Positions 16,528 through 46,879 of a DNA stretch of 64,000 nt are shown here, in pieces. The notes beneath the pieces are model-generated. The model was not told the origin of the DNA and ran no database searches. It saw only the letters and a program-made list of their open reading frames with translations. Position numbers and translations under genes: made by a program. Position 1 is the first letter of the stretch; each line of letters starts with the position of its first letter. Source of the DNA: an uncultured Gammaproteobacteria bacterium (lineage in GTDB: Bacteria; Pseudomonadota; Gammaproteobacteria; CAWCPV01); assembly GCA_963797555.1 (NCBI GenBank), contig CAWCPV010000002.1:205561-269560 (forward strand), read 5' to 3'.

Positions 16528-17586
16528 CTAACGCGTCGGGCCCCATTCGAGAGTGAAATGGCGGGGGAAGGGGGTTTCCAGTCCGTCGAGGCGCGTGTCG
16601 ATCTGACCTGCACTGCCGGCCGCACGGCGCAGGCCAGGGAGCGCTAGCAGCGGCATCAGCATGGCGGGCAGCAGCGCGTGGTTGATGCGGTCGCCAAAAC
16701 AAAGATGCACGCCGCGTCCCCAAAGCAGATATTGGCCCCACGGCCGGTCGGTGCGCCATTTGTGCGGGTGCTGCACCGCTGCCTCGTCGTGCATCGATGA
16801 CAGATTGGCGGCCAGCACCATGGTGTTCTTGGCGATGGCCGTGCCGCCCAGCGTACAATCGGCGACTGCGCGGCGGTAGATCACCGGGTTGACAGGGTTG
16901 AAGCGCAGCGCCTCCCAGATATGTCCGGCGACGAGTGTTTCGTTGCCCGCTTGCGCCGCAGCGGTGGCGCTGGCGAGGGCTCTCGGGCGGCGGAACAGTT
17001 CGTCGAGCGCGAAGCACGCGGCCTTTGACAGGGTGGGAATGGCGCCGATCACGATACCGATCATGTTGCTGCGGATGCCGTCGCCCTGAAAGGCGACTTC
17101 GCCCGCGTCGCGCGCCGCGACCGCGCGAGCGATCAGCGTGTCTGGGGTAGGGGCGAGAACGGCCGCGTCGAGCGCTTCGCGGGTTTCGGCTGCGGCGGTC
17201 AATGCGGCGGCCTCGGCGGCGGCCTCCGCTGTCAGGTCGCTGAACAGATAGTGGAACATCGCCGTGGCCCAGGGGATCAGGTCGTCGACGGACGCCGTGT
17301 GCAGCCCGAAGTAGCGCTGCACCATCAGCGCGGGGATGCGGGCGGTCAGTCGCGACGGCAGGTCGATGCGGGCGCCGGCAACGGTGCCGGCATCAATGCC
17401 GGTTGGCGCGCCGGTGATCGCACTGACAGCTTCGGCCCGGACCATCGGCAACACGATGCGCGCCAGGGCGACCGTGGTTGGCCGAGCCTGCCAGAAATCT
17501 CGGAACGGTCCCTCGGCGTCGGCCGCAAGCTTGCGAGATTCGCTTGTGCTTCCGGGGCGTGGTCCTATAGGTTCTCTTGAAGACAA
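16528..17586 (-). CDS. Cytochrome P450, probably 5'-truncated
   Basis: EALR (ExxR) and WGRGVHLCFG heme-Cys motif. No convincing start; the N-terminal part appears lost at the CRISPR-island boundary. Confidence 0.75.
   Translation of the reverse strand: MSSREPIGPRPGSTSESRKLAADAEGPFRDFWQARPTTVALARIVLPMVRAEAVSAITGAPTGIDAGTVAGARIDLPSRLTARIPALMVQRYFGLHTASVDDLIPWATAMFHYLFSDLTAEAAAEAAALTAAAETREALDAAVLAPTPDTLIARAVAARDAGEVAFQGDGIRSNMIGIVIGAIPTLSKAACFALDELFRRPRALASATAAAQAGNETLVAGHIWEALRFNPVNPVIYRRAVADCTLGGTAIAKNTMVLAANLSSMHDEAAVQHPHKWRTDRPWGQYLLWGRGVHLCFGDRINHALLPAMLMPLLALPGLRRAAGSAGQIDTRLDGLETPFPRHFTLEWGPTR
17525..17534 (+). promoter_or_regulatory. Palindrome GCAAGCTTGC upstream of cas6 (candidate operator)
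   Basis: ggcc-GCAAGCTTGC about 70 bp before the cas6 ATG; recurs before other island genes. Confidence 0.55.
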
Positions 17587-17603
17587 AAGGCAGAGGCGGC
17601 GTG

Positions 17604-18662
17604 ATGACCGTGGACCTGGCTGTGGGGCAAGGGATCAAGGATCGCCGGGACACCCCCGAGCGGGTGCTCCCCGAGCTTGGGGTCGGGCGGTATCGCCTGG
17701 CATTTCGAGCCGCCGAAGAGGTGATGCTGCCGGCCTATGCCGGCTCCGCCTGGCGCGGGGCCTTCGGGCACGCCCTGAAGCGCACAGTGTGTGTGACGCG
17801 CGAGCGGCGGTGCGAGGACTGCCTGCTCTACGGCTCCTGCATTTACCCCTATGTGTTCGAGACCCCGCCTTCGCCGGGCGTCGCGAAGATGCGCCGATAC
17901 ACTGCGGCCCCTCATCCTTTTGTGCTGGCGCCCATGGATGGCGATGCGACGGGGCGGACCCTCGGTGTCGGCACTCCGCTCGCGCTCGGGCTCACCCTGT
18001 TCGGCCGGGCCAACGCCTACCTTCCGTACTTCGTGCACGCTTTACAGCGCGCGGGCGAAGAGGGGTTGGGCAAGGGGCGAGGCCGTCTCGCCCTGGCCGC
18101 GGTGGAGCAGGAGGCGGCGTGCGGCTCGGCAGACTGGCGCACGGTCTATGAACCGGAGGAGCGCCTGCGGCCGTTCGGCGCACAGACACCCCCCGTCCCT
18201 CTGCCCCCTCGGGGCGTGTTGACCCTTACCTTCGCCACGCCTTTGCGCCTCAGGCGAGAGGGGCACAACGTCCCTTCCCAAGACTTGCGATTTTCTGACC
18301 TCTTCGGCAGCCTGCTGCGCCGCATCTCGATGCTGACCTACTTTCACACCGATACACCGCTGGAGACGGACTTCGCGGGGTTGGTTCGGGAAGCGACGCG
18401 GGTGCCGCTGACGGAGGCCGATGTGCGGTGGCGCGAGTGGAGCCGCTACTCGTCTCGGCAGCAGACGAGGATACAGATGGGGGGCATCACCGGGACGGTC
18501 CAGGTAGACCTCACGGGCCACGACGACCTCTGGCCCTACCTGTGGCTCGGCCAATGGACCCACGTGGGCAAGGGCACCAGCATGGGTCTCGGGCGATACG
18601 CCATCGATATGCCCGCAAGCTTGCCGGCTCGGACGCCGGAGGCAGCGGCGTGCGAGACTTGA
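17604..18662 (+). CDS. cas6: CRISPR pre-crRNA endoribonuclease Cas6 (RAMP)
   Basis: GSAWRGAFGHAL, Cys cluster CVTRERRCEDCLLYGSC, PHPFVL, and C-terminal G-loop GQWTHVGKGTSMGLGRY. Confidence 0.9.
   Translation: MTVDLAVGQGIKDRRDTPERVLPELGVGRYRLAFRAAEEVMLPAYAGSAWRGAFGHALKRTVCVTRERRCEDCLLYGSCIYPYVFETPPSPGVAKMRRYTAAPHPFVLAPMDGDATGRTLGVGTPLALGLTLFGRANAYLPYFVHALQRAGEEGLGKGRGRLALAAVEQEAACGSADWRTVYEPEERLRPFGAQTPPVPLPPRGVLTLTFATPLRLRREGHNVPSQDLRFSDLFGSLLRRISMLTYFHTDTPLETDFAGLVREATRVPLTEADVRWREWSRYSSRQQTRIQMGGITGTVQVDLTGHDDLWPYLWLGQWTHVGKGTSMGLGRYAIDMPASLPARTPEAAACET
18615..18624 (+). promoter_or_regulatory. Palindrome GCAAGCTTGC upstream of the NE0113-family gene
   Basis: gccc-GCAAGCTTGC in the low-complexity tail of cas6, about 100 bp before the next gene. 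Confidence 0.5.
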
Positions 18663-18717
18663 CGCAAATGGAACCAAGCCAGCGCCGGCCCCCGGCCAAA
18701 CGAGGCCGTCTCTGACC

Positions 18718-19935
18718 GTGAGCGGAGTGATGCAAAGCGGGCCGAGCCTCTTTCCCCGCCGCGTCCTGCTGGCCGTGACCGGGCTCACGCCCCAGGTGGT
18801 GACCGAGACCCTCTACGCGCTGGCCGTCCGGTCGGAACCGAAGTTCATACCGACCGAGGTCCACCTCGTCACCACGCTGGAAGGGGCAGAGCGCGCCCGC
18901 TTAGGGCTACTGCACGAGCGCACGGGGTGGTTCCACCGGCTGCGCGGGGATTACGGGCTGCCGGAGATCCGCTTCGACATGCAGACCATTCACGTGCTGA
19001 GCGATGCCGCCGGGACGCCGCTCGCCGACATCCGTGTGCCTGCGGACAACGAGCGTGCCGCGGACCTGATCACGGAGCTGGTCCGCCGGATCACCGACGA
19101 CCCGGCGAGCGCCCTGCACGTCTCCATCGCGGGAGGCCGCAAGACGATGGGCTTCTACGCGGGCTATGCGCTTTCGCTGTTCGGGCGTCCGCAGGACCGG
19201 CTGTCCCATGTGCTGGTCAGCCCGCCGTACGAGTCACACCCGGCTTTCTTTTATCCCACCCCGGACAGCAACGTGATCCACACGTTTCCTCCGGACAGCC
19301 GCCCCTACGACACTCGCGATGCGACGGTGACCCTCGCCGAGATCCCCTTCGTGCGGCTGCGCCACGGCCTGGACGAGCGGCTGAAGAGCGGACAGGCCTC
19401 GTTCAGCGAGGTGGTGATGGCTGCCCAGCGGGCGCTGGGAACGCCGGAGCTGGTGGTGGACCTCGGTGCCCGGAGATTGGTCTGCGGCGGGCAGGCCGTC
19501 GAGATGACACCCGTCAATCTCGCGCTGTATGCCGCGCTGGCGCGCCGGCGGCAGGCGGGCGAGGAACCGGTTCAGCGCAGCATCGCCGGGATCTCGGCGG
19601 AGCTCCTGGCGGCGCTCGCCGCGATCGTCCCGCCGATGTCCCTCGAGTACCAGCGCACGGAGGAGGCATTGCACGGGATCGCCCAGGCCGAGCGCACGGA
19701 ACCCGCCCTCTGGAGCAGCATGGACCAGGGCGACTTCGACCAGCGCAAGACGAGGGTGAACAAGGCACTGCGCCGCGCCTTGGGAGTGGGTGCGGAGCCC
19801 TATGTCATCAAGGCGATGGGCGGTCGTCCCCGCACCCAGTTTGGCCTGACGCTGCCCCCGGAGGCCATACGGCTGGTCGCCACTCCGCAGCGTGACGTTC
19901 GAGAGGCAGGGTCACGAGGGGAGATCCAAGGCTGA
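18718..19935 (+). CDS. CRISPR-associated CARF protein of the NE0113 (TIGR02584) family (ring-nuclease-like) with a C-terminal wHTH-like domain
   Basis: RVLLAVTGLTPQVVTETLYAL, HVSIAGGRKTMGFY, GRPQDRLSHVLV. The C-terminal part (LVVDLGARRLVCGGQAVEMTP..LALYAAL) looks like a winged helix. Confidence 0.85.
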   Translation: MSGVMQSGPSLFPRRVLLAVTGLTPQVVTETLYALAVRSEPKFIPTEVHLVTTLEGAERARLGLLHERTGWFHRLRGDYGLPEIRFDMQTIHVLSDAAGTPLADIRVPADNERAADLITELVRRITDDPASALHVSIAGGRKTMGFYAGYALSLFGRPQDRLSHVLVSPPYESHPAFFYPTPDSNVIHTFPPDSRPYDTRDATVTLAEIPFVRLRHGLDERLKSGQASFSEVVMAAQRALGTPELVVDLGARRLVCGGQAVEMTPVNLALYAALARRRQAGEEPVQRSIAGISAELLAALAAIVPPMSLEYQRTEEALHGIAQAERTEPALWSSMDQGDFDQRKTRVNKALRRALGVGAEPYVIKAMGGRPRTQFGLTLPPEAIRLVATPQRDVREAGSRGEIQG

Positions 19936-20017
19936 CGGACTGCCCCATGACCATCGACCTCAGGGCTGCGCGTTTATATACGTGCCTCGGCAGGCCTGTC
20001 AGCCGACACGCAAGGCC

Positions 20018-20027
20018 GCAAGCTTGT
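20018..20027 (+). promoter_or_regulatory. Near-palindrome GCAAGCTTGT upstream of cmr1
   Basis: ggcc-GCAAGCTTGT about 60 bp before the cmr1 GTG. Confidence 0.45.
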
Positions 20028-20085
20028 GGCCCGAGCGTGGGATGGACTGTCGAGGCAACATAAGCCGGTACCAGGGAGAACGACT

Positions 20086-21265
20086 GTGAAGAAGCTGGAA
20101 TACACCGTGGAGTTCACCACCCCCGCCTTCCTCGGCAACGCCGAGCAGGCGGGACAGTGGCGCACGCCGCCGTTCAAGGCGCTGTTGAGGCAGTGGTGGC
20201 GGGTGGCCTACGCCGCCGACCATGGCTTCCAGGTCGACGTGCCGAAGATGCGCCGGGAGGAGGGACTGCTGTTCGGCCATGCCTGGCTGGATGACGACCG
20301 CGACGAGCAAGGACGGCGGGTTGCCGCTCGCAAGAGCCTGGTGCGGATACGGTTGGACAAATGGGATGAAGGCAAGATGCACGGATGGCAACCCCTGGCG
20401 ACGGTGTCCCATCCGGAAGTCAAGTCTCCCGACGTGTACAGCGATCTCTACCTTGGCTACGGCCCGGTCACACTTCCAAGAGGGGGTAAGCCCCCGCAAC
20501 TCAAGGCCAACGCTGCTATCCGGGCAGACGAATCGGCCACGTTGTCAACTGCTGTTCCAACCACGCATCAAGACGCAGAACTCGACCGGCTGCTCGAGGC
20601 CAATGTCCCTCGCATCGCGCAGGCGCTGTGGCTCATGGACCGCTATGGCACTCTGGGCGGCAGAAGCCGCAATGGGTGGGGCTCCTTCTCGCTCACGCCC
20701 ATGAACAGCACGCCGCCGCTGGCTGGCACGCCAGCGCTGCGGCCGTGGCGCGATGCGCTCGGTTTCGACTGGCCGCATGCCCTCGGTCAAGACGACGAAG
20801 GCGCCTTGATCTGGCAGACCCAGCCAGACGACTGGAAGTCGCTCATGCGCAAGCTGGCCATCGTAAAGATTGGGCTGAGGACACAATTCAAGTTTCCAAA
20901 CGTATCGCTGCCCCACGCCCAGCCGCTGGATCGCCATTGGCTTTCATACCCCATCACAAGCCACAACCAAGGCATGGAAGGGGACATTCCGCCTGCCCAA
21001 CAGCCTGCGCTTCAAGGTGCGCAAGCTCCCGGACGGTAAGTTGGTGGGCGTGATCTTTCACGTGCCCTGCCTGCCGCCACCGGAGTTCCATCCCCACCAA
21101 AACGCAAACGCCATTCGGGAGGTCTGGCAGCGCGTCCACGTCTTGCTGGATGAATGCAGGAAGCCATTGAATCAACGAGAGTACGCAAGCATCGCCGATA
21201 CGGTCCGCCGCAGCCAACTCAAGCCGCAACTCGATCAGATCACGCTGCATAGGATTCCGGAGTAA
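20086..21265 (+). CDS. cmr1: Type III-B RAMP protein Cmr1, frameshifted near 20965
   Basis: VEFTTPAFLG, FKALLRQWWR and G-loop GTLGGRSRNGWGS. Continues in another frame as KAWKGTFRLPNSLRFKVRK to the stop at 21265. Confidence 0.8.
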
Positions 21266-21268
21266 GTT

Positions 21269-24200
21269 ATGAACGACGATTTCACCTGGCAAACCAAGCT
21301 CGCCGCCCGCATCCACGACCCGGCGGAAAAGGCTTTGGTGCTGCTGCGCGACCCGGCGGGGCACGAGGGAGGCACCTCCCGCGCGTTGACCCGGCTGCTG
21401 GGCCTGTCGGATATCACTGGCGACGCCCTCGCCCCGGACAATGCCGATGCGCTTTCCACTGTGGTCTTCAAGAGAGGCATCCCACTTGCGATGTACCGCC
21501 ACGTCCAGCGCGCCGACTGGTGGGCGGCCGCCGCCGACCGGCCCCAATGGCCGATGGAGACCATCACCACGCCAGCCGGAAAGACCCTTAGTGTGGCCCC
21601 CTGGGCGCAAGTGCGATGGACGAGGTCGCCGGTGCTGATCCATCCCCTTACCGGTGACACCTTCGATCTGGCCAAGCACGGCGGGCTTTCCGATACCGAT
21701 CTCGCCGACCTCAAGCAGCGCAGCTTTGGTCATTTCTCGCGACTACTCAGCGCGCTGCGCGACTCTGGCCCCGCCGAGGACCCGAGAAAGACCCTGCTCG
21801 CCTACTGGCGCTTCGGCCCGGAACTGGTCGAGGAAGAGGACAATGGCAAGCTCGGGGCGCTATGGCGCTTGCTCCCCGCCGATACGCGCATCCCCGACCA
21901 TTCCATCTGGGACCACCTGGATTTGACCTCCGCCTTCGCCGGGGCCTTCGCCGCCGACCCGGATGGCGAGGCCTCGCTGCTGGCGCTTGCTATCGGCCCG
22001 GTGCAAGGCTTCATCGCCGCCGCCCGCACCACCTCCGACCTTTGGGCGGGTTCCCACCTCCTCGCCCGTCTCGCCTGGGAGGCGATGAAGCCGGTATGCG
22101 AGGCCCTGGGGCCGGACGCTATTCTCTTCCCTCGCCTGCGCGGCATCCCCCAGGTAGACATCTGGCTGCGCGAAGAGATGAACCTGCCCGCCGAACTGTT
22201 CGGGGATTGCGACTGGATGCGGGGCGGCACGGATGCCAACCCGCTGTTCTCCGCCGCACTGCCCAACCGCTTCGTGGCCATAGTGCCGGCGAGGCGGGCC
22301 AAGGAACTGGCCGAGGAGGTCACCCGCCGGGTGCGTGCCTGGTTGCAGGAGAAAGGCCAAACCGCCGTGGACCGCCTGCTTGACGTGACCGGGCTGAAGA
22401 CCGAAGGCGAACAGCACTGCCACCGCCAAGTGCGGGAACAGTTGGAAGGCTTCCCGGAAGTCCACTGGTCGGCGGTGCCGTTCTCGCTGATTCGCCCGCG
22501 CAACGCGGCTAAACAGACCGATCTGGATGTCGCGGCCTTGTCCGACGCAATGGCGCCGTTCTTCGGCGTGGGGGCGGGCCAGGATTGCGGTTTTCTGCAC
22601 ACGCCTGCCTGGCAGGCTCTGCAACAAGAGGCCACGTTGCGCGATGACGAAGGTAAGGAATCGGTGTTCTTCGCGCCCAATCCCGGCGTTCTCTACCCGG
22701 CGGTGTATGACCTGGCCGAGCGGGTGCTGGCGGCGGCCAAGTCCGTGCGCGCCTTCGAACAGACCGAGCAACGGGGCTGGCGCTGTTCGCTCACCGGAGA
22801 GACCGAGTGGCTGACGGACAACTCCGATCACCTAGCCGTACCCGCGGGCAAGCGCAAGAGCCGCAAGGATGAAAGGTTCCGTGAAGCCGAGCACGTGGAA
22901 ACCCTGTGGACCCGCGTGGCCGACAAAAACCCCGCCTGGGCGAAAAAGGGCGAGCACCTGGGTGCGCTGCCCGCCCTCAAGCGGTTGTGGCCCACCCTGT
23001 TCGCCGAGGAGGTCGGCAGGGCCTTGGGCGGCAAGGACATTGGCCGCTTCGTGGTGTCCACCCATACCATGGCGCTCGCCCACCAGCTCGACCAATGGCT
23101 GGAACGCGGCGGCTTGACTGCGGAAGGGCTCGCCATCGCTCTCAAGAAATACCGCAGTGAGTCGGCGGCGCTGCCCCGCCGATTGATGCGCAAACATGCC
23201 GCCAACAGGAAGGGGATTGACGATGCGAAGCTCATTCCCGGCCTGCTCGACGTGGCGAGCGAGGAGGAGATCAGTGACAGTGAGAGCGCCGAGATCAGAA
23301 GGCTAGTGTCCCAGACGCTGGCAACTGGCCGGGACAAGAAGGAGAAGGTCCGTCTTGAAACCTACTACGCGTTATTGATGATGGACGGCGACCACATGGG
23401 TCGCATTCTGTCCGGCGACGAGAAAACCGCCATCCCCTACCGCGGGAGCTTTCATCCCCATGTGAGGAATGGCTTTGAAGAATGTGCCGCCCGGCAGGAG
23501 ATCATCCGCCGTTACGGCGAACAGAGACGCCCGATTTCTCCCAACCGTCACCTGGCGATCTCCGGAGCGCTGAACGATTTTTCGCAGACCGTGGTGCGCC
23601 ATGTGGTGGAAGAGGAGCACCTGGGCCGGGTGATCTATGCCGGTGGGGACGACGTGCTGGCCATGCTGCCGGTGGTCGACCTGCTCCCGGCCATGCAGCG
23701 GCTGCGCCTTGCGTGGTCCGGCCATGACCCGGCGCACGAGGGCGGCACGCATGCCGGGCTCACTTTGCAGGGCGGCTTCGCCGCTTTGAAGACCCGGCGA
23801 GACGGCAAGGAATGCTTGCAGCTCATGCGCATGATGGGCGGCAATGCCTCGGCGTCCTGCGGTGCGGTCATTGCCCACCATCAGGCCCCCTTGGGCGGCG
23901 TTCTGCGCGAGCTGCGGGCGGCGGAACAGCGGGCCAAGCAGGAAGGCGGACGCGATGCCTTCTCCCTCACCGTCATCAAGCGCTCGGGCGGTGCGCTGCG
24001 CCTCACGGCGCAATGGGGCGAGCCGGTGGACGTGCTCGCCGATCTCAGGGTCTACCTCGCTGATGAAGGGGTCTCGCGCCGGGCGGTGTACCACAGCCTG
24101 GAGTGGCTCGCCGATCTGCCCGAGCCCGAAGGGGACGGCGCGATGATCGAGGCGTTGCTGACCTATCAGCTCGAGCGGCAGGCGGAGAAGACGGCCCGCG

Positions 24201-24343
24201 ACCGCCACGATATACCGGGGCTGGCGAAGCGCCTGACCGTGCTCGCCCTGGCCCAGGCAGGAGACCGGCTCGCGTGGCTCGGCAATTTCCTGACCGTGGC
24301 CGAATTCCTCGCCCGCGAGACCCGCGCCGGAGAACCCGCATGA
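21269..24343 (+). CDS. cas10: Cas10/Cmr2, type III-B large subunit
   Basis: 1024 aa; PADTRIPDHSIWDHL, IGPVQGFIAAAR..DLWAGSHLL, LMMDGDHMG and intact palm motif YAGGDD. The N-terminal IHDP is only a partial HD signature. Confidence 0.95.
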   Translation: MNDDFTWQTKLAARIHDPAEKALVLLRDPAGHEGGTSRALTRLLGLSDITGDALAPDNADALSTVVFKRGIPLAMYRHVQRADWWAAAADRPQWPMETITTPAGKTLSVAPWAQVRWTRSPVLIHPLTGDTFDLAKHGGLSDTDLADLKQRSFGHFSRLLSALRDSGPAEDPRKTLLAYWRFGPELVEEEDNGKLGALWRLLPADTRIPDHSIWDHLDLTSAFAGAFAADPDGEASLLALAIGPVQGFIAAARTTSDLWAGSHLLARLAWEAMKPVCEALGPDAILFPRLRGIPQVDIWLREEMNLPAELFGDCDWMRGGTDANPLFSAALPNRFVAIVPARRAKELAEEVTRRVRAWLQEKGQTAVDRLLDVTGLKTEGEQHCHRQVREQLEGFPEVHWSAVPFSLIRPRNAAKQTDLDVAALSDAMAPFFGVGAGQDCGFLHTPAWQALQQEATLRDDEGKESVFFAPNPGVLYPAVYDLAERVLAAAKSVRAFEQTEQRGWRCSLTGETEWLTDNSDHLAVPAGKRKSRKDERFREAEHVETLWTRVADKNPAWAKKGEHLGALPALKRLWPTLFAEEVGRALGGKDIGRFVVSTHTMALAHQLDQWLERGGLTAEGLAIALKKYRSESAALPRRLMRKHAANRKGIDDAKLIPGLLDVASEEEISDSESAEIRRLVSQTLATGRDKKEKVRLETYYALLMMDGDHMGRILSGDEKTAIPYRGSFHPHVRNGFEECAARQEIIRRYGEQRRPISPNRHLAISGALNDFSQTVVRHVVEEEHLGRVIYAGGDDVLAMLPVVDLLPAMQRLRLAWSGHDPAHEGGTHAGLTLQGGFAALKTRRDGKECLQLMRMMGGNASASCGAVIAHHQAPLGGVLRELRAAEQRAKQEGGRDAFSLTVIKRSGGALRLTAQWGEPVDVLADLRVYLADEGVSRRAVYHSLEWLADLPEPEGDGAMIEALLTYQLERQAEKTARDRHDIPGLAKRLTVLALAQAGDRLAWLGNFLTVAEFLARETRAGEPA

Positions 24344-25533: not shown

Positions 25534-25541
25534 AGGCAGCG

Positions 25542-27381
<1,840 letters not shown>

Positions 27382-31144: not shown

Positions 31145-31155
31145 GAGAGCGTCCC

Positions 31156-36820: not shown

Positions 36821-36829
36821 GCACGGAGA

Positions 36830-38928: not shown

Positions 38929-39698
38929 ACATGCTGCTCGAGCCAGCCGCCGTTCGCGAAGCTGCGTCTCTGCTCGTCGGGGAACCGTACGCTGCCGCTG
39001 CGAGCGTCGAAGGCCAGGACACCGGCCTGGTCCAGCCGCCGGAGCAGCGTCAGCACCCGGCGGTCCCGAATCTGTCCGGAGTTGAGGGTCACCGGGCCGC
39101 CGGTGTTGCGGGCCTGCGCGGCCGCCCAGTTGAGCGTCCGCAAGGCCGGGTCCTGAGAGGCCGCGAGCTCGGTGAGCTCCGCCGTCAGCGCCTCGTCCCG
39201 ATACGCGCTCCCCGTCTCCCGCGACACTTCTTGATAGCCATATGCCCTCAGGTAGTCGCGGATGCTCAGGTGGCTCTCCAGCTCGAACCCGGCCCGCTCG
39301 TGCGGGTGCAGCCAGGTCAGCGTGTTGTCGGTCTCCACGTAGAGGGCGGGCAGCCCGCGGCGGCGGAACACCTCGTAGGCGGCGATGGACATGGGCTTCT
39401 GCCCGCCCGTGGCGTTCAGCACCGCCCCCTCGGCGCCGACCTCGGCCAGACACCGCTGCACGTCCTCGCGCACGCGGGCGAGGTTCAAGCGATCGATGAG
39501 CGGCCAGAGCGTCGGCTGCACGCCGTGGCCTTCGAGCACGGCGCAGAGGCGCTCGGCGCGCTGGGACATCTCGGGGCTGGTGAACAGCACCACCTGGCGG
39601 GGCCGCAAGCGGCTGTCCAACACCGCAGCGAGGTTGGGAATGGGCTGCCCGGAGACGATACAGAAATGGGTCGTGAAGGGATGCAGCGTCTCAGCCAA
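38529..39698 (-). CDS. Card1/Can2-like CARF plus restriction-endonuclease-fold effector (DUF1887)
   Basis: CIVSGQPIPNL and NATGGQKPMS (CARF); NGGWLEQHV and NELDVAF..IVECKT (PD-D/ExK). Confidence 0.85.
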   Translation of the reverse strand: MAETLHPFTTHFCIVSGQPIPNLAAVLDSRLRPRQVVLFTSPEMSQRAERLCAVLEGHGVQPTLWPLIDRLNLARVREDVQRCLAEVGAEGAVLNATGGQKPMSIAAYEVFRRRGLPALYVETDNTLTWLHPHERAGFELESHLSIRDYLRAYGYQEVSRETGSAYRDEALTAELTELAASQDPALRTLNWAAAQARNTGGPVTLNSGQIRDRRVLTLLRRLDQAGVLAFDARSGSVRFPDEQRRSFANGGWLEQHVAATLSLNAAAWGIDEVAANLQVRADSGSPPVQNELDVAFLARNHLCIVECKTARPRGDDDDADELTQMLYKLDSIRKVGGLVARPMLVSWFTAGPRHRERAALSDIRLVSGEELTRLRMRLQAWVAARPDAR

Positions 39699-40965
39699 TG
39701 TAGGCGTCCGGAAGCTGCGGGAAGCCTGTGACGTGAGCCGCCTTCATCTCTGCGGCCAGTGCGGGCACGAATATCTCCTCCGCCCAGCTCCGCATCCGTT
39801 CCCACTGGGCAGGGCCGATGGGGCGGAAACCGTGCGCGAGGATGGAGGCGTTACGCACGAGCAACTGATCGAGGAGTGCATCGTGGCGTTCGGCGAAGAA
39901 GCGCGCCGCGGGTCCGCCCGTATGCTGCTGGACGAGCTGCCAGGCGGCGAAGAGCCCCGCCTGGAGTTTTCCCTCCCGGTTCACTGTCGCCAGCCCTTCC
40001 GGGTCCTTGTCCGCCGGCAGGTCCGCCGTGTCCAGCCCGGCACGTGCGCGCAGCACCCACTGGGCAGTCCATTCCAGGACCCGGTACAGGCGCGCCACCG
40101 CGTCGTCGTAGCGCCCCGCGCGAGCGCGCCGCTCCGCGTTGAGCCACAGGTCCCAGATGCGCAGCGGCTCGCGCCGGGGCGATTCGTCGCCGGTCAAGAC
40201 CTCGAGCGCGCCGAAGTAAGCGCCGAGCGGCCCGGCAATGACGGGCGCATACGGACGCAAGCGGCGCAGCGCTTCCGTATGGTCGAAGCGGTCCCACGCG
40301 GCGAGGGCTGCGCTCAGGTCCCGAGCGCGGCTCAGCTCCGCGGCGAGCGGTACGTCGCGAGGGGCGGCGACAGCCTCCAGCGCCTCCGCCGCTTCGTCGT
40401 AAGCGAAGCGTCGCCAAGGGGCCAGGGCTGCGGCCATGGCGCGGCGGACGCGGATGCGCTCCACCGAGGCGAGGACCGCGTGCTCGGTGCCGTCCAGCAC
40501 GCGCACGAGGTCTCCCCGGTTGCCCGTCACGAGCTGCAGATCGACGCCGCCCGCTTCCAGCGCCGCGAGCGCCAGCGCCGCGGTCATCGTTTTGGTGCCG
40601 CCCGTGTAGTCCGCGGCCAACCGGGCCCCCGGAAAGCGTTCGCGGACACGCTCGATGTCTCGTTGGAGGAGGTGGAACGCGTCGTCCAAACCGTCCGCCG
40701 GCACTTCCAGCACCTCGTACGCCCCTTCGGCCAGACCGGCCTGCGCGGGAATGTTGGGCAGGCTGGGCGCGGGGTCGTCGCGGCTCGCCTTGATGACGTT
40801 GCCCTTGCCGAGCACCTGCGTGGCCGACCCCAATCGGCCCGTGCCGGGGTCCCGTCCGGTGCAGACGAAAATCACGTGCGCCGGCCGCAGCGAGCGAATG
40901 GCCGTCACAATGGGCTCGTGGGAGCCGCCGACGGTGCAGAACAGGATGACCTGGCTCTCGCTCAT
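39691..40965 (-). CDS. TIGR02710-like CARF-HEPN (Csm6-like) CRISPR effector
   Basis: FCTVGGSHEPIV and DYTGGTKTMTAAL (CARF); YDDAVARLYR; HEPN-like RNASILAHG. Confidence 0.85.
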   Translation of the reverse strand: MSESQVILFCTVGGSHEPIVTAIRSLRPAHVIFVCTGRDPGTGRLGSATQVLGKGNVIKASRDDPAPSLPNIPAQAGLAEGAYEVLEVPADGLDDAFHLLQRDIERVRERFPGARLAADYTGGTKTMTAALALAALEAGGVDLQLVTGNRGDLVRVLDGTEHAVLASVERIRVRRAMAAALAPWRRFAYDEAAEALEAVAAPRDVPLAAELSRARDLSAALAAWDRFDHTEALRRLRPYAPVIAGPLGAYFGALEVLTGDESPRREPLRIWDLWLNAERRARAGRYDDAVARLYRVLEWTAQWVLRARAGLDTADLPADKDPEGLATVNREGKLQAGLFAAWQLVQQHTGGPAARFFAERHDALLDQLLVRNASILAHGFRPIGPAQWERMRSWAEEIFVPALAAEMKAAHVTGFPQLPDAYIG

Positions 40966-41576
40966 GGTCGAGACAGCGGGACCCAGCCGAGGGAGCCGAG
41001 GTCCACGGCGACCTCCGGGAATGCCTTCGGGCGTGCGGCGCCTGCGCGGTAGTAATCCACGTGCCGGTACTCGCCGGCCTCGGGGCCGTGGTAGACATCG
41101 AGCCGCTTCTCCGGCAGGTCGAACAGCCAGACCTCGGGGATACCGCGGCGGGCGTAGAGCGGAACTTTCACCTCGCGGTCGTACCGCCCAGTGGTGTCGG
41201 CCACTTCGACGAGCAGCAGGACATCTTCGGGGCCGGGATGGGCGGAGCGGTAAAAATCGTCCCTGAACTTGAGCACGGCGAGGTCGGGCTGGGGCTCGGA
41301 GTGATCGTCGAGCCGAACCGGGTCCTGGACACTCACCACGGCCCGGTCGCGCACCCCGACCGCGAGCAGGTGGTTCAGCAGCTTGACGATGCCCGTATGC
41401 TCGCTGCCTAGCGGCGCCATGTCGACCAGCGCCCCCTCGATCAGCTCGACGCGCTCGCCCGGCTTGAAGATACCGGCCTCGCCCATGCGCTGATACACCT
41501 CCACCGTAATCATGCGCCGGGCTGGCAACAGCGCCTCCTCGACCCGGTGCTCGTCAGCCGCAACGCTCATGACCAT
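40962..41576 (-). CDS. Uma2-family (DUF820) endonuclease-fold protein
   Basis: ERVELIEG, SEPQPDLAV, LLVEVADT, KVPLYARRGIPEVW. Confidence 0.88.
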   Translation of the reverse strand: MVMSVAADEHRVEEALLPARRMITVEVYQRMGEAGIFKPGERVELIEGALVDMAPLGSEHTGIVKLLNHLLAVGVRDRAVVSVQDPVRLDDHSEPQPDLAVLKFRDDFYRSAHPGPEDVLLLVEVADTTGRYDREVKVPLYARRGIPEVWLFDLPEKRLDVYHGPEAGEYRHVDYYRAGAARPKAFPEVAVDLGSLGWVPLSRP

Positions 41577-41776
41577 ACCTCACGCCTCATCCCGGCAGCA
41601 GAATCCTATCCGAGCCCCCGATCCTTGCCCGGAATCGGCGCCGAGCGATTGAAACACCCTCAGGGAGCGCTCGTGGCCCTCGTCCTCCGCAGAGCTCCTG
41701 GCGGCGCTCTCCTGCCAGACGTTAGCACGCTTCATCGTTCTGTGCACCGAAGGCCCCCAAGGAACGCCGTCGACAA

Positions 41777-42193
41777 TCAGCGCGGCCTCTGCGCCAGCGC
41801 CCAATCGAAGAACCGCCGGTACAGCGCAAGCGCCGGCTCCACCGCCGCGATCACGCGATCGAGGTCGATCACGTCGTAGAGGTGCGTGAGAACGTTGCGC
41901 ATACCGCAGGCGTCGACCAGCGGGTCGGCTAGGTCCCGCGGCATGGCGTCAAGCTGCGCCAGGGCCAGAAAGACTTCCCGATAGCTCGACGCGAGGCCGA
42001 AACCGCGCGCTTTGAGCACCTGCAAGCCGATGTCCGCGGCCGACTCGCACAAGAGCTGCAGCAACCGCTCGATGGCGTAGTGCTGGCGCCGGCGTTCCTC
42101 AGGAGCCAGCCGCCCGTAGGGCTCCAGATCCATCAGAAACTGGCGCAGGAAGCCGAGCTTGCGCTCGAACACCTCGCGGCTAGGCGGGCTCAT
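41777..42193 (-). CDS. HEPN (DUF86/HepT-like) RNase toxin
   Basis: GMRNVLTHLY matches Rx4HxY; AIERLLQLLCE. Confidence 0.88.
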   Translation of the reverse strand: MSPPSREVFERKLGFLRQFLMDLEPYGRLAPEERRRQHYAIERLLQLLCESAADIGLQVLKARGFGLASSYREVFLALAQLDAMPRDLADPLVDACGMRNVLTHLYDVIDLDRVIAAVEPALALYRRFFDWALAQRPR

Positions 42194-42572
42194 CGAGCAT
42201 CTCGCTGCTGGCGCGCCGGAACTTCTCGGTGTCTGCGTAGAGGAAGAATGCCCGGTCCTGCTCCCGCGAGAAAAGTCCTTCCTCGGCTTCGTGAAGACAC
42301 ACGCCCCGCTGGAAGACCTGGAAGCGCGCGGTGGGCGACAATCCTTCAGTCAGTAGCAGGAGGTCCACCCCGCGTTGCGGGAACAGGGGCTCGAGCGCCG
42401 CCACCCATTTGCCCTGTTCGAAGAGCGTCGGCACAGCGCTGGGCATCACCGCCAGGTCAACGTCCCTGCCGACGGCGCCTGCGGCGCTGGAGCCGAAAAG
42501 CACCACCAGCCGCCAGCCGAACCGTTGGGCGAGGTCCGCGAGCTGCCGCTGCGTTTCAGGGACAATATGCAT
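42180..42572 (-). CDS. Minimal nucleotidyltransferase (MntA-like) antitoxin
   Basis: VLFGSSAAG..DVDLAV..VDLLLL; overlaps the HEPN gene. Confidence 0.85.
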   Translation of the reverse strand: MHIVPETQRQLADLAQRFGWRLVVLFGSSAAGAVGRDVDLAVMPSAVPTLFEQGKWVAALEPLFPQRGVDLLLLTEGLSPTARFQVFQRGVCLHEAEEGLFSREQDRAFFLYADTEKFRRASSEMLDEPA

Positions 42573-42744
42573 CAGCCGACCCTCGCGCGTCCCGACCAAG
42601 ACTTCCGCCGAGCTCCGTTCCAAGTCTACCCGCCAGACCTCGGGGGCCCCGTGGCAGCGGCGTCTTTTCAGCATCAGGGTACTATGTCTGCCGCCGATGC
42701 CCAATGCGGCCCACGGGACTCATCGTCGCGAGCACCTCCCCCGG

Positions 42745-43557
42745 TCAGCTCGGAGCGGTGCTTTCAATACCTCGGCCACCAGGGAGCGCCCGCCCCGCCC
42801 GACGGTACAAGGCCGCGATCACCTCCCGCATGTCCGCCGGCAGGCGCCGCCAGCCTTCGGCAGCAATGTCATCGGGGATCCCGAAGCGGGCCTCGGCGAT
42901 TCCCCCGGCGATGGCGGCCAGGGTATCGCTGTCGCCGCCCAGGGAAATGGCGTTGCGGATGGCGTCCTCGTAGCCGGCCGCCTCCAGGGCGCAGATCACG
43001 GCTTCGGGCACGGTGCCCTGGCAGGTCTCGTCGAACCGGTAGCCTGGGCGGATGCCGGCCACGGTGCGGTCGAGGTCATAGCGGTAGGCGCCGCTCACGG
43101 CCCGGCGGATGGCGGAGGCGGACTCCCCGTGGAGCGCCATGAAGATCGCCGTGGCGGTGGCCGCGGCCCCCTTCAGCCCCTCGGGGTGGTCGTGGGTCAC
43201 CTCCGTGACGCTCCGGGCGAACCCCAGGGTCTCTTCCAGGGTGTGCCCCAGCAGACCGGCGGGCGAGACGCGCATGGCCGCTCCGTTGCCGTAGCTGCCG
43301 TAGGGCGCCGTCTCCGCCGAGAAGAGCCAGCGGGAGAAGCGGCCGCCCCACCCCGAGTTGGGATAGCGCCGGCCCCATTCTTTGAATGCCTGCCCCGGCG
43401 GGCGGTCGTTGATCAGGGCGTCCGCCACCGCCACCGTGAGCACGCTGTCGTCGGTGAAGAATGCGTCGCGGCGCAGGAAGGGCTCGAAGTCCTTGGCCTT
43501 GTACCCACGAAATTCGTAGACCGACCCGGCGATGTCGCCTATAACGGCTCCAAGCAT
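42745..43557 (-). CDS. ADP-ribosylglycohydrolase
   Basis: MLGAVIGDIAGS, FTDDSVLT, SYGNGAAMRVSP, GGDSDTLAAIAG. Confidence 0.92.
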   Translation of the reverse strand: MLGAVIGDIAGSVYEFRGYKAKDFEPFLRRDAFFTDDSVLTVAVADALINDRPPGQAFKEWGRRYPNSGWGGRFSRWLFSAETAPYGSYGNGAAMRVSPAGLLGHTLEETLGFARSVTEVTHDHPEGLKGAAATATAIFMALHGESASAIRRAVSGAYRYDLDRTVAGIRPGYRFDETCQGTVPEAVICALEAAGYEDAIRNAISLGGDSDTLAAIAGGIAEARFGIPDDIAAEGWRRLPADMREVIAALYRRAGRALPGGRGIESTAPS

Positions 43558-43793
43558 AGCGTTCTCCTTCGTGGAATGCCCGACCGGGCGCGGCAGCCGC
43601 CCGCCACCGGCCGTCGTCAGTCGTTGCTGCGGTCCTCCATCAGGCTTCCTCCCACCGGCTCCAGCGCCGGGACGCTCGACGGCGTCGCGGCGAAGTTACC
43701 GCTCACTGCTTGCTCCCGGCTGCTGGCTTCCCCGTCGCCTTCGTGAGATCGCCTTCGCCGTCCAGCGGATGTGGTGAGTGCGCCATACCGGCA

Positions 43794-45179
43794 TCAACCC
43801 TCGCATTCGCTCTGATCCTCCAGCAGTCCGGCCGCATCCAGCTCCAGCGCCGGGATGCTGGGCAGGCTGCTGCCGACGATGCCGCTCATCTCGCCGTACA
43901 TGCCCACGGTGTTGGTGATCACGCGCTCGATCTGCTTCTCGCGCTCCTTCCAGATCTTCTCCATCGCGCGGCGTTCGCGGTTGAGCTGCTCCTGCAGCCC
44001 CCGGAAGGCATCGACGATGCCCTGCACGCGGCTGCGGAACTGGTCGCCGGCGAGGTAGCGGTAGAGCATCTCCATCTTCTCGTTCTTGCCCTCGGAGGCC
44101 GCGTGGGCGAACGCCACCTGGACGAGCTGCTCGCGCAGGGCCACCGCGAGCGCCGGCCAGGCCCGGAGGCTCGCGATCCACACCCCTTCGACGAGTCCGA
44201 ATTCCTGGACCGTGTCGGGGAGCACCGCGGAAACCAACACCGCCAGGTTGCCGCCGACCGCGCGCTGGTCCTCCTTGAGCTTGTCGATCCAGCCCGGGCT
44301 CCAGTTCTTGGTGTTCTTGGTCTCCCATACGATGCTGCCGCAGGGTTGCATGATGTGGTTGCGCACCTCGTGAATGAGGTCGGCGCCGCGCGCGCCCTTG
44401 GGAACCGGGCGGATGGCGTCCTGCGGAAACTGCCGCTCCAGCGCCGCCTGGATGTCCAGCTCCAGCACCTCCCCCTGCAGCTCCTGAGAGCCCTGCTCGC
44501 TCCTGCGCTTGGCGTCGTCCAATGCCTTGCGCAGGTCATCGATCTGCTTCTCCTTCTCCTTGAGCTTGAGCGCCTGCTCCTCGGTGGCGGCCTTGCGGAT
44601 GGCCTCCTCCAGCCGCTGCTTCTCCGCGTCGACCTTGCGTGCCACCTCCAAGTCCAGCTCCCGGCTCCGCTCCTCGAGGACCGCCTTCTCCTTGCGCAGG
44701 GCCAGCTCGGCCTGTTGAGCCGCCTGAGCCTTGCGGCTCTGCTCGGCGAGCTGCTCCTTCAGGAGCTTCATCTCTTCATCGCTGGTCGCACGAGCGCGCG
44801 CCTCCGCCTGGGCCGCTGCGGCCTTGACCCGTTCGTCGGCCTCTTTGCGCAGGGCCTGCTCCACCTCGTCCCGTACCTTCTCGGCGAGCTGCCGGTTCTG
44901 CTCCTCCAGCTCCCGCGCCCTCTTGCGCAGCTCCAACTGATCCGCCAGAGCTGTCTCGGCCTTCTCGTCCTTTTCAGCCAGCCTGACCTTGAGGTCGGCC
45001 AGCTCCAGCGTCAAAGCCTGCTGGGCGCTCGACCGGGCCTGCTCCACAGCGCGCCTGAGCTGGGCCTCGTGTTGGAGGCGGAGGGTGTTTTCCAGGTCGC
45101 GGCGGATCTGGGCCGACAACGCCTCGGAGACGGGGATCTCGGTCCCGCAATTGGGACAGCGGATGCTCGTTTCTGACAT
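43794..45179 (-). CDS. DUF2130-family protein (Zn ribbon, coiled coil, nuclease-like C-terminus)
   Basis: IRCPNCG, long coiled coil, QGSQELQGEVLEL, FPQD..PVPKG..GAD, WETKNTKNWS..WIDKLKEDQR. Confidence 0.85.
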   Translation of the reverse strand: MSETSIRCPNCGTEIPVSEALSAQIRRDLENTLRLQHEAQLRRAVEQARSSAQQALTLELADLKVRLAEKDEKAETALADQLELRKRARELEEQNRQLAEKVRDEVEQALRKEADERVKAAAAQAEARARATSDEEMKLLKEQLAEQSRKAQAAQQAELALRKEKAVLEERSRELDLEVARKVDAEKQRLEEAIRKAATEEQALKLKEKEKQIDDLRKALDDAKRRSEQGSQELQGEVLELDIQAALERQFPQDAIRPVPKGARGADLIHEVRNHIMQPCGSIVWETKNTKNWSPGWIDKLKEDQRAVGGNLAVLVSAVLPDTVQEFGLVEGVWIASLRAWPALAVALREQLVQVAFAHAASEGKNEKMEMLYRYLAGDQFRSRVQGIVDAFRGLQEQLNRERRAMEKIWKEREKQIERVITNTVGMYGEMSGIVGSSLPSIPALELDAAGLLEDQSECEG

Positions 45180-45193
45180 TTGTTCAAGACCTC

Positions 45194-46643
45194 GTAACTA
45201 TTCAGGTATCTCTTGCAGGACAGTTGATTATGCGTGACACTTTAGTGCATGCATGAGAAACAGAGTGCAACCCCATTCGATGCCGCCCTGTTCGGCGAGC
45301 TAGAGCGGCTGCGTGCGGAGAACGCCGCATTGCGCGCCCAGGTGGCGCAACTGCTGCAACGGGTCCAAGACTTGGAGGCCCGACTGGCCAAGGACAGCCA
45401 CAACTCCAGCAAACCACCGTCATCGGATCCCCCGTTCAATCCTGGCGCGACGATGGGGCTGGTGGACGAACCCGACCGCACCGTGTTCCTGCCGCTGACT
45501 GGGCACTGCGATTGCGGGTGCTGCCGTGCGGGGATCCTCGCCTCGGCGCTGCCCGAGCGACGCCAAGTGACCGAACGGGTGATCCGCCGTGAGGTTACCG
45601 AGTACCGTATCCTCGAAGGGGTGTGCATCTGCGGCCAGGTGCACCGTAGCGCGTTTCCGCCGGGGATGGACGCTGCGGTGCAGTATGGACCGGGAGTGTA
45701 TGCTCTTGCGGTGCACTTGACCCAATACCAGCTCCTGCCCTACCGGCGCACCGCTGCGTTGCTCGATGAGCTGGCCGGCATCGCCATCTCTCCTGCTACC
45801 ATCCATGCCGCAGTGAGGTCTGCGGCCATGCGGGTGCAGGCGCAGGTAGCGACCATCGGCCAAGCGCTCGCGCGTGCCGCGGTGGCCCACGCCGACGAGA
45901 CCGGTGTGCGCGTCGACGGCAAGCTCAACTGGCTGCATGTTCTGAGCACCGATACGCTCACCACCTGCTTTGTCCCTGCCAAGCGCGGCCAGGCCGCCCT
46001 GGATGCCTTCGGTCTGCTGGCGCACTACACCGGCATTCTGGTCCATGACCACTGGTGTGCCTACGACTGCTACCCGGGCCTGCACGCCTTCTGCAACGCT
46101 CATCCCCTGCGGGAGTTGATCGGCCTCATCGAGGGCTTCCCCGAGCAGAGCTGGGCGGCACCGATGATCGATCTCCTGTGCCAGGCCAAAGAGGCCGCCG
46201 ATCAAGCCCGCGCTCAGGGACTCGCGGCCCTGCCCACACCCGCCCTGGAGCAGTTTCAGGCGCGCTATGACACGATCCTCACCCAAGGCGCGGCACTCAA
46301 CCCCCGCAACACCCAGCGCACCGGCACCCGCGGGCGAATCAAGCACTCACCCGCCTACAATCTGCTCGGGCGCCTACGCGAGCGCCGCGACGATACCTTG
46401 CGCTTTCTCACGGATCTCCGCGTCCCCTTCGATAACAACCAAGCTGAGCGCGATGTGCGCATGCCCAAGGTCAAACAGAAGGTCTCCGGAGGCTTTCGCT
46501 CCTCCGAGGGCGCTGCAGCATTCGCCACCATCCGCTCTTACCTCTCCACCTTGCGCAAACAATCCGCCGACCTCTTCCATGCCTTGGTCATGACCTTCCA
46601 GGGGGCGCCGCCTATGCCGCGGTTGGGGTAGGTGAATAGTTAC
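45194..46643 (+). mobile_element. IS66-family element, single-ORF type
   Basis: IR GTAACTATTCA / TGAATAGTTAC; 8-bp target duplication AAGACCTC (45186-93 and 46644-51). Confidence 0.93.
45249..46631 (+). CDS. IS66 transposase
   Basis: KDSHNSSKPPSSD, HADETG, VHDHW, FDNNQAERDVRMPKVKQKVSGGFRS. The usual KPGGQ.GH segment appears deleted. Confidence 0.9.
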   Translation: MHEKQSATPFDAALFGELERLRAENAALRAQVAQLLQRVQDLEARLAKDSHNSSKPPSSDPPFNPGATMGLVDEPDRTVFLPLTGHCDCGCCRAGILASALPERRQVTERVIRREVTEYRILEGVCICGQVHRSAFPPGMDAAVQYGPGVYALAVHLTQYQLLPYRRTAALLDELAGIAISPATIHAAVRSAAMRVQAQVATIGQALARAAVAHADETGVRVDGKLNWLHVLSTDTLTTCFVPAKRGQAALDAFGLLAHYTGILVHDHWCAYDCYPGLHAFCNAHPLRELIGLIEGFPEQSWAAPMIDLLCQAKEAADQARAQGLAALPTPALEQFQARYDTILTQGAALNPRNTQRTGTRGRIKHSPAYNLLGRLRERRDDTLRFLTDLRVPFDNNQAERDVRMPKVKQKVSGGFRSSEGAAAFATIRSYLSTLRKQSADLFHALVMTFQGAPPMPRLG

Positions 46644-46837
46644 AAGACCTCCTGAATATCCTCACCTCGGCCTACGCCGCGAGCACGCAAGCCGCCTGTC
46701 CGGCCCTTTATTACCACAGTCGCTGCATCAATCCGTGAGGCAGTGCCGGTGGCCCAGCGTCAGCGATTGTGCTCCGCACGCAGCCGGTGATGCCTGGAAA
46801 TTCCACCTTAGCGGCATTGTTGCGCTCCGGTCGCTGC

Positions 46838-46847
46838 GCAAGCTTGC
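46838..46847 (-). promoter_or_regulatory. Palindrome GCAAGCTTGC upstream of the DUF2130-to-Card1 gene string (as it was before IS66 inserted)
   Basis: gccc-GCAAGCTTGC on the minus strand; a TAAGGT -10-like hexamer lies about 28 bp downstream. Confidence 0.5.
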
Positions 46848-46879
46848 GGGCAAGGCCACCACGGCCTCGCTGCTAATGA

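Follow-up and report, generated by a model that had tools for sequence, protein, structure and literature searches.

The 64-kb window analysed here is a stretch of contig CAWCPV010000002.1 from an uncultured Gammaproteobacteria bacterium. It carries an island of about 30 kb of type III-B CRISPR genes, in which a 10-bp palindrome, GCAAGCTTGC, recurs. This palindrome, referred to below as the box, is a genuine control site that has been conserved in loci from several bacterial phyla. It stands at a fixed distance from a −10-like promoter hexamer, and it accompanies the gene for an NE0113-family CARF protein, which is found in the window at 18718–19935. Judged from the sequences, this protein very likely binds the box. 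Taken as a whole, we consider it probable that the box is the NE0113 operator, to which a dimer of the protein would bind to activate the type III-B genes, with cyclic oligoadenylate as the likely trigger.

Distribution of the box in the window and the genome

Six exact copies of the box are present in the window, at 17525, 18615, 25436, 31520, 38467 and 46838, where dinucleotide-preserving shuffles give an expectation of 0.08 and none of 100 shuffles held more than one copy. A further copy at 20018, GCAAGCTTGT, carries one mismatch and fits the degenerate form RCAAGCTTGY. A first-pass annotation of this DNA had listed this variant and all the exact copies except that at 25436, which it overlooked, and had put the expectation below 0.1 per window; its sites are all real and its estimate agrees with the shuffles. 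The boxes are arranged as follows.

17521–17534, plus strand: box 1, GGCC followed by GCAAGCTTGC, between a P450 gene fragment and cas6
18611–18624, plus strand: box 2, GCCC followed by GCAAGCTTGC, in the 3′ end of cas6, about 100 nt before the NE0113 gene
20014–20027, plus strand: box 3, GGCC followed by GCAAGCTTGT, between the NE0113 gene and cmr1
25436–25445, plus strand: box 4, without a GSCC flank, in cmr3, 97 nt ahead of the stop codon
31520–31533, minus strand: box 5, GCCC followed by GCAAGCTTGC, between a Card1 gene fragment and cas2–cas1
38467–38480, minus strand: duplicate of box 5, just downstream of full-length Card1 and within the duplication at 38406–38928
46838–46851, minus strand: box 6, GCCC followed by GCAAGCTTGC, with TAAGGT 27 nt downstream

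Because the boxes at 31520 and 38467 share one 524-bp duplication, the window holds six independent sites, that at 20018 included. An exact search found no copy in the rest of the window outside the island, in agreement with the earlier remark that none was noticed in the glycogen and rec regions, and Rfam gave no match in the window at its gathering thresholds. Two of the placements given earlier require amendment. The box assigned to the NE0113 gene does lie upstream of it, but sits inside the 3′ coding end of cas6; the box assigned to the string of genes from DUF2130 to Card1 is real, but a copy of IS66 now intervenes.

A genome-wide count, which had been proposed as a check, shows the motif to be rare and clustered at two CRISPR loci. 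There are 20 exact copies in 5,345,739 bases, six in the island and 14 outside it, and two of these 14 fall within a second CRISPR locus on contig C20. The density outside the island predicts 0.08 copies for the island, against the six seen. RCAAGCTTGY occurs 26 times in the genome, nine of them inside the two CRISPR loci, and the oriented 14-mer G[GC]CCGCAAGCTTG[CT] is found six times in the island, on the strands given in the first-pass annotation, and nowhere in the remaining genome. The box is the top palindromic 10-mer of the island, whose commonest 10-mers outside the CRISPR array are the box itself and words overlapping it.

These counts bear on the proposal that the box has no role in transcription and is instead a site of recombination or module shuffling, or has arisen incidentally through duplication, coding constraint or composition, which we regard as highly improbable. 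The boxes do lie at module boundaries, one is in the 524-bp duplication, one is beside a gene remnant and an insertion sequence (IS), and two are in coding sequence. Against this, AAGCTT occurs 12 times in the island where 3.7 are expected, the majority contributed by the box, and with the boxes removed its frequency is ordinary, so that composition or a bias in HindIII sites was rejected as the cause of the cluster. Boxes are found in differing reading frames and in non-coding DNA, and at the C20 locus a box has been kept where the surrounding DNA has diverged past alignment. Two spacings described below likewise argue against the proposal: a −10 hexamer stands at a fixed 28 nt, confined to the gene side, and a fixed 6–7 nt separates that hexamer from a start codon.

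Conservation at NE0113 loci of other genomes

We scanned 80 loci with NE0113 homologs of 40–67% identity, taking one genome per species. The loci were picked for the presence of NE0113 and related genomes are not independent, so the counts below overstate independence. The homologs come from Acidobacteriota, Nitrospirota, Methylococcaceae, Nitrosomonas, Burkholderiales, a Bacillota metagenome-assembled genome, Leptospirillum, Nitrococcus and others. At least one box is present in 68 of the 80 loci, and in 52 of 79 the NE0113 gene is preceded by RCAAGCTTGY. Exact GCAAGCTTGC is present in 47 of the 80, and in 32 of 79 an exact copy falls between −300 and +45 of the estimated NE0113 start (34 sites), giving a density of 1.25 exact copies per kb upstream of NE0113 compared with 0.034 per kb over the remainder of these loci. 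A symmetric variant, ACAAGCTTGT, occupies the same place in 11 of the 37 loci that lack a close match.

The gene junctions marked by the box in the window recur elsewhere. It is found before cmr1 or DUF2130 in 12 of 22 related genes, in the last 130 nt of cmr3 in 8 of 14, before cas6 in 14 of 56 related loci and within 800 nt upstream of cas1 in 4 of 13. Together with the NE0113 upstream region and the NE0113 3′ end, these four junctions make up the scored position classes, which contain 93 of 114 boxes. Homologous loci had been named earlier as a check of the motif, and they show it conserved in several phyla at the same junctions. Individual arrangements are also reproduced. Locus L003 has the order Card1, box, cas1, akin to the context of box 5, and the order NE0113, box, DUF2130 in L001, L008, L010 and L035 accounts for the NE0113 gene remnant beside the box at 46838. 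Across the sample the box adjoins the NE0113 gene with neighbours as varied as cas6, cas1, cmr1, DUF2130, Card1 and unknown genes.

Box 4 allows the constraint on the DNA to be compared with that on the protein. Its codon layout in cmr3 is xGC-AAG-CTT-GCx. The residue ahead of Lys-Leu-Ala varies (Arg, Gly, Cys or Gln), yet the bases GC-AAG-CTT-GC are retained in box-bearing loci, which points to selection on both DNA and protein. The leucine codon is CTT in all 18 loci with Lys-Leu, GC-rich loci included; genome G012, with no box in 18 kb, has the synonymous AAA at the Lys-Leu-Ala position. Coding constraint as the sole cause of the box was rejected, since boxes are also non-coding and in differing frames and the cmr3 residue is variable.

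Promoter geometry and symmetry of the site

For 113 boxes there was enough flanking sequence for scoring. The hexamer TAnnnT lies exactly 28 nt past the box on the gene side at 34 of these 113 sites, compared with three on the opposite side; for gaps of 26–30 nt the figures are 43 of 111 distinct contexts and 5 of 111. The activator-like spacing that had been pointed out at the two minus-strand sites of the window, a TAnnnT hexamer about 28 bp on, is borne out there, by TACATT 28 nt past the boxes at 31520 and 38467 in the minus-strand reading and by the TAAGGT after box 6, and these counts show it to be conserved across loci. In the window as a whole nAnnnT is found at 27–29 nt for six of the seven boxes: the plus-strand hexamers are GAGACT at a gap of 29 nt for box 2, CAACAT at 28 nt for box 3 and CACGAT at 28 nt for box 4. 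The exception is box 1, at 17525, where the hexamers are less regular (TATAGG at a gap of 31 nt, picked out by eye, and TAGGTT at 33).

Among 47 oriented, non-redundant sites aligned for a consensus, there is no −35 consensus between box and hexamer and no TTG-like signal at +15 to +20 after the box start. The sites follow the activator-dependent sigma-70 pattern of a −10 hexamer at fixed distance and no −35 consensus. With the hexamer taken as the −10 element, the box would span about −50 to −41, an activator-dependent layout. In pho-box promoters the activator site similarly lies beside the −35 element or replaces it. In 34 of the 52 loci whose NE0113 gene is preceded by a box, an nAnnnT at this spacing is followed 4–9 nt later (mostly 6–7) by an in-frame open ATG or GTG of NE0113, so the NE0113 mRNA is probably leaderless. 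In Acidobacteriota loci the start linked to the hexamer extends the N-terminus by 28–36 residues.

The family consensus from the 47 sites is a 14-bp dyad, YG-RCAAGCTTGY-CR. The flank at −1 is G in 32 of 47 and that at +11 is C in 41 of 47, and the outer positions of the box vary symmetrically, as in GCAAGCTTGC and ACAAGCTTGT. The tetranucleotide GSCC, earlier said to precede every site, does precede five of the six independent sites in the window, but it is missing at 25436 and from all 47 oriented sites elsewhere. It was consequently rejected as part of the family motif and is a local feature of the window.

Three divergent loci have variant dyads 27–28 nt before a −10-like hexamer: CAAAAGCTTTTG in L053, TGACAATATTGTCA in L060 and ACAATTTTGT in L070. 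The proteins of these loci differ in the putative recognition helix and are also the most distant relatives; co-variation of recognition helix and box is visible, but it is confounded by phylogeny and was excluded as evidence. L049, from a Leptospirillum metagenome-assembled genome, has no box and carries GAGAGCTCTC three times in 10.9 kb (at 2443, 6171 and 7226), which may be another operator, belonging to a divergent homolog.

The NE0113 protein

The product of the gene at 18718–19935 matches PF09623 with 169.1 bits (cut-off 23) and TIGR02584 with 244.5 bits (cut-off 80.65). An alignment-based model of the protein has a predicted local distance difference test score (pLDDT) of 87.9 and a predicted template modelling score of 0.80. 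Foldseek matches its N-terminal domain to the CARF domains of Cad1, TtCsm6, Cam1, Can2, Sso2081 and Sis0455, and the conserved CARF loop residues include an invariant GGRKTMGFYAGYA. A sequence search of the PDB with the whole protein returned no match at expectation values (E) up to 10.

The C-terminal 168 residues, modelled with a pLDDT of 81.6, comprise strands at domain residues 8–25, helices, and strands at 128–150, with a helical insertion of about 50 residues predicted at low confidence. The Foldseek neighbours of this domain are nearly all OmpR/PhoB winged helices (E 0.049–1; template modelling scores by target length 0.5–0.64). They include BaeR (E = 0.049), PhoB on pho-box DNA (1gxp), PrrA, CadC, ArlR, KdpE, OmpR, ToxR and GlnR. 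A profile of 47 such C-terminal domains finds KdpE (E = 0.009), RstA, MtrA, PhoB and relatives, all in one register, at E 0.009–1.8. The fold neighbours of the predicted structure are in keeping with the winged-helix-like C-terminus read from the sequence in the first-pass annotation. The C-terminal domain of the window protein has no match in Pfam, and as Trans_reg_C is unmatched we term the domain OmpR/PhoB-like without assigning it to that family.

A homodimer formed through the CARF domains is predicted with a score of 0.74, against 0.00 for the best of three controls. At least 66% of contacts are common to the runs, the partner pLDDT does not fall below 82, and the predicted interface involves residues 105–111, 137–154, 164–169, 205–216 and 229–242. 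Of 30 solved same-chain pairs 20 attained the mark used, as did 1 of 23 single chains. The prediction fits the dimeric regulator that had been postulated from the palindrome.

In loci L040, L041 and L042 the NE0113 frame runs into open reading frames of 1258–1261 residues, and in L062 into one of 676 residues. These loci come from Methylococcaceae, Crenothrix and Methyloprofundus, and the extended frames suggest a regulator fused to a further module.

Proposed mechanism and its alternatives

In the mechanism that we propose, the N-terminal CARF sensor of the NE0113 protein (18718–19935) would dimerise and its C-terminal OmpR/PhoB-like winged helix would bind DNA, placing a symmetric dimer on the box, which would span about −50 to −41 in promoters with a −10 but no −35 element. 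Besides activating its own gene, it would drive cas6, cas2–cas1 and the cmr operon, within which cmr3 would hold an internal promoter; the string from DUF2130 to Card1 would also have been activated before the insertion of IS66. The trigger would be cyclic oligoadenylate bound by the CARF domain, giving a feed-forward induction of the type III-B system on infection. A source of the signal is encoded in the island, where Cas10 has GGDD and HD motifs and genes for Card1 and Csm6-like effectors lie nearby. Since the Cas10 cyclase motif is kept, cyclic oligoadenylate is the likeliest trigger, and we hold its control of the regulator to be slightly favoured. Such a coupling of Cas10-made cyclic oligoadenylate to transcription through the NE0113 protein had been put forward in the first-pass annotation, and all the computational checks named there had a favourable outcome.

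The protein and the box may nevertheless work by a different logic: the protein could be a repressor, or a ligand-independent autoregulator whose CARF domain serves mainly as a ring nuclease, or cyclic oligoadenylate could release it from the DNA. We think this unlikely, though it has some evidence on its side. NCBIfam names TIGR02584 as a ring nuclease, the CARF domain resembles those of the ring nucleases Sso2081 and Sis0455 and of the self-degrading TtCsm6, and the box stands directly before the regulator's own gene in the 52 of 79 loci noted above. Autorepression is common among regulators encoded in defence islands. The position of the box argues the other way. It is situated upstream of the −35 position, clear of the −10 hexamer, and the promoters have no −35 consensus; by analogy, such an arrangement is typical of activator-dependent promoters, those with a pho-box among them, and not of steric repression. 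By the same analogy, activation by NE0113 seems to us the probable mode.

More tentatively, and with rather less than even expectation, we suggest that NE0113 proteins are master activators of bacterial type III-B immunity gated by cyclic oligoadenylate. On infection, the signal from Cas10 would start a positive feedback passing through a leaderless, autoregulated mRNA, and the proteins would jointly raise CRISPR RNA processing and Cmr as well as spacer acquisition and ancillary effectors, further loci of the genome included. Their own ring nuclease activity would reset the response, and box and protein would have spread and co-evolved together over at least five phyla.

Type III loci with and without TIGR02584 genes were compared, as had been suggested, in a sample of 300 genomes of the same class, of which 27 have Cmr3 and 32 have NE0113. 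NE0113 is present in 21 of the 25 Cmr3-positive genomes examined. Of the four loci in which the gene was not detected, three are boxless over the 20, 20 and 14.4 kb surrounding cmr3; the fourth, in genome G194, has boxes. Of eight NE0113-positive genomes fetched, seven have one to five boxes and G012 has none. The pattern RCAAGCTTGY-N27-29-TANNNT occurs in 155 of 301 genomes, a count of descriptive use only because the background is too high in AT-rich genomes; among the matches listed it stands at NE0113 genes in G000, G001, G134, G142 and G251.

Several observations weigh against the proposed activation by NE0113. With respect to the protein, none of the 47 C-terminal domains matches Pfam Trans_reg_C at E up to 1, and the winged-helix assignment, with a best Foldseek E of 0.049 and a best profile E of 0.009, is a weak one. 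The homodimer score may reflect likeness to solved CARF dimers. NCBIfam calls TIGR02584 'CRISPR-associated ring nuclease Csm6', a name that implies a role needing no DNA binding; as family scans found no match to the Csm6 HEPN domain in the NE0113 protein and its C-terminus is winged-helix-like, this name may mislead annotation. OmpR/PhoB domains usually bind direct repeats and not a 10-bp palindrome, and the plus-strand boxes of the window have poorer −10 hexamers.

With respect to the loci, 12 of the 80 are boxless and 27 of 79 have no box upstream of the NE0113 gene, and G012 combines NE0113 and a cmr operon with no box in 18 kb. The co-occurrence of NE0113 and box is itself partly built in, as the loci were chosen by NE0113. 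G194 has three boxes at the expected places of its cmr locus and no NE0113 match in a 99%-complete assembly. The cmr operon of this locus (L092) is the closest relative of that in the window, with Cas10 68% identical. Its contig, C6, ends inside a gene for a Cad1-like CARF-adenosine deaminase directly upstream of the box before cmr1, that is, at the place expected for the regulator gene, so the regulator either lies beyond the contig end or is really missing; G194 would represent an assembly gap in the first case and a real counter-example in the second.

The three boxes of G194 are also the first argument for a real operator served by another binder, whether a different protein of the locus or a shared host regulator. 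In G165, moreover, the boxes at the cmr locus are on a different contig from the NE0113 gene, and the choice of loci by NE0113 biases the association. We judge this alternative very unlikely. The box flanks the NE0113 gene regardless of its neighbours, a host factor common to at least five phyla is improbable, and, Xre-type antitoxin and transposases aside, NE0113 has the only DNA-binding-like domain among the island proteins; boxes on other contigs are compatible with control in trans.

Relationship to known systems

NE0113 and Csa3 were placed together as CARF families 'predicted to regulate transcription directly' by Makarova et al. 2014 (PMC4012209). Three later papers report that Csa3 regulates cas and other genes and binds cyclic tetra-adenylate (PMC8699464, PMC8844856, PMC9704534). 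Like NE0113, Csa3a and Csa3b of the type I-A systems of Sulfolobales are encoded in CRISPR loci and combine a CARF with a winged-helix domain. NE0113, in contrast, belongs to another CARF family (PF09623/TIGR02584), is bacterial, resides in type III-B loci and is associated with a box of its own, RCAAGCTTGY, and its DNA-binding domain is predicted to be OmpR/PhoB-like with the helical insertion of about 50 residues. No Csa3 entry is among the Foldseek matches listed for the whole model or the C-terminal domain, and none was matched by sequence in the PDB, in which structures of Csa3 are presumably present.

NE0113 resembles the PhoB/OmpR activators in the modelled fold of its putative DNA-binding domain and in a candidate site that adjoins or replaces the −35 element where a −10 element is the only one present. 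It differs in having no receiver domain or phosphorylation, a CARF domain being the sensor, and in that its candidate site is a dyad instead of a tandem direct repeat. The CARF fold is similar to that of Crn1-type ring nucleases (7ygh, 7z55), a group that includes Sso2081, Sis0455 and Sis0811. To our knowledge no conserved operator or regulon has been assigned to Crn1-type CARF ring nucleases. A long Crn1-type form in which CARF is fused to a helix-turn-helix domain is reported in PMC9638899. The CalpL–CalpT–CalpS system resembles the present proposal in passing a type III cyclic oligoadenylate signal to transcription; there, according to PMC11229360, a protease activated by cyclic tetra-adenylate frees a sigma factor through proteolysis of an anti-sigma factor. 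That route is indirect, whereas a single NE0113 protein would both sense the signal and bind DNA.

A text search of the literature, judged by titles and abstracts, found no published operator for the NE0113 family, and all matches to GCAAGCTTGC or CAAGCTTG as whole words were unrelated; within the literature searched, the NE0113 operator and regulon appear undescribed. A 2022 review gives Csa3, archaeal and linked to type I-A, as the only characterised non-nuclease CARF effector (PMC9704534), and a 2024 survey of type III systems deferred transcription regulators to a later study (PMC11229360).

The expression control of bacterial type III CRISPR systems has been little described. The box supplies a concrete and widely conserved cis element, with consensus, promoter position and target set defined and a regulator gene adjacent. 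It makes the 2014 prediction for NE0113 testable in culturable hosts represented among the loci, for example Methylotuvimicrobium buryatense 5G (L061) or Nitrococcus mobilis (L078). Should the link to cyclic oligoadenylate be true, type III signalling would induce the immune system itself, beyond the toxic effectors, and a compact ligand-responsive promoter system would be at hand.

Organisation of the island and the second CRISPR locus

The plus strand of the island encodes, in order, cas6, the NE0113 CARF protein, cmr1, cas10, cmr3, an open reading frame without a family match, a cmr4-like gene and a CRISPR array of 19 repeats. In the order of transcription, the minus strand carries DUF2130, an ADP-ribosylglycohydrolase, MNT/HepT, Uma2, a Csm6-like protein, Card1, a 6.4-kb insertion, a Card1 fragment, cas2 and cas1. 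Together with the boxes listed above, the features are as follows.

17577–18662, plus strand: cas6, start codon uncertain (PF10040, E = 6e-20; TIGR01877)
18718–19935, plus strand: NE0113-family CARF protein of 405 residues, the candidate regulator (PF09623, E = 1e-49; TIGR02584, 244 bits)
20026–27265, plus strand: cmr operon
20026–21039, plus strand: cmr1
21269–24343, plus strand: cas10, with GGDD at residue 792 and HD at 16–17
ending at 25533, plus strand: cmr3
25530–26213, plus strand: open reading frame without a family match, with a relative in L003
26225–27265, plus strand: cmr4-like, its profile match covering only positions 1–173 of 283
27706–29011, plus strand: CRISPR array, 19 repeats of about 36 nt
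31156–31560, minus strand: cas2 (PF09827), its true start probably downstream of 31560
30323–31846, minus strand: open reading frame containing cas1 (PF01867), after cas2
38529–45179, minus strand: ancillary gene string from DUF2130 to Card1
38529–39698, minus strand: Card1
39691–40965, minus strand: Csm6-like
40962–41576, minus strand: Uma2
41777–42193, minus strand: HepT
42180–42704, minus strand: MNT
42745–43557, minus strand: ADP-ribosylglycohydrolase
43794–45179, minus strand: DUF2130
45192–46644, plus strand: IS66-family insertion (PF03050), separating box 6 from DUF2130 and placed 13 nt upstream of where DUF2130 starts
46882–47134, minus strand: second NE0113 gene remnant, residues about 142–185, with stop codons

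No recognisable cmr5 or cmr6 was found (window 25530–27265 and 29438–31846). The cas1 match covers profile positions 1–202 of 283 and a weak Cas1 match lies in a separate open reading frame at 29438–30193, so cas1 may be disrupted.

The 524-bp direct duplication (31458–31981 and 38406–38928, 96.8% identical) flanks about 6.4 kb that contains a HAD-like hydrolase, two family-2 glycosyltransferases and a repeated element. This insertion separates Card1 from cas2–cas1 and has left a C-terminal fragment of Card1 at 31582–31935. Other copies of the IS66 element in the genome are more than 99.7% identical (on contigs C2 and C17, with a C9 copy in two pieces).

The second CRISPR-Cas locus of the same genome, on contig C20 (G000, 47000–69000; L103 and L104), contains cas2–cas1, a reverse transcriptase, an array with a related repeat, RAMP genes, an NE0113 paralog and cas6. 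The paralog is frameshifted, lying in two frames split near residue 170. Both C20 box copies are in this CRISPR locus, one of them between cas6 and the NE0113 paralog. Relative to the window, its coding DNA is 67–71% identical and its spacer DNA is unalignable, and the box is retained. The intact regulator of the window may serve both loci.

Just beyond the island, at 47956–48866, lies a pair formed by an Xre-like antitoxin and a RES-domain toxin. An IS of about 1.17 kb at 13800–14970 has more than 20 near-identical copies in the genome, and a 148-nt repeat at 15521–15668, resembling a miniature inverted-repeat transposable element, has copies well above one hundred.

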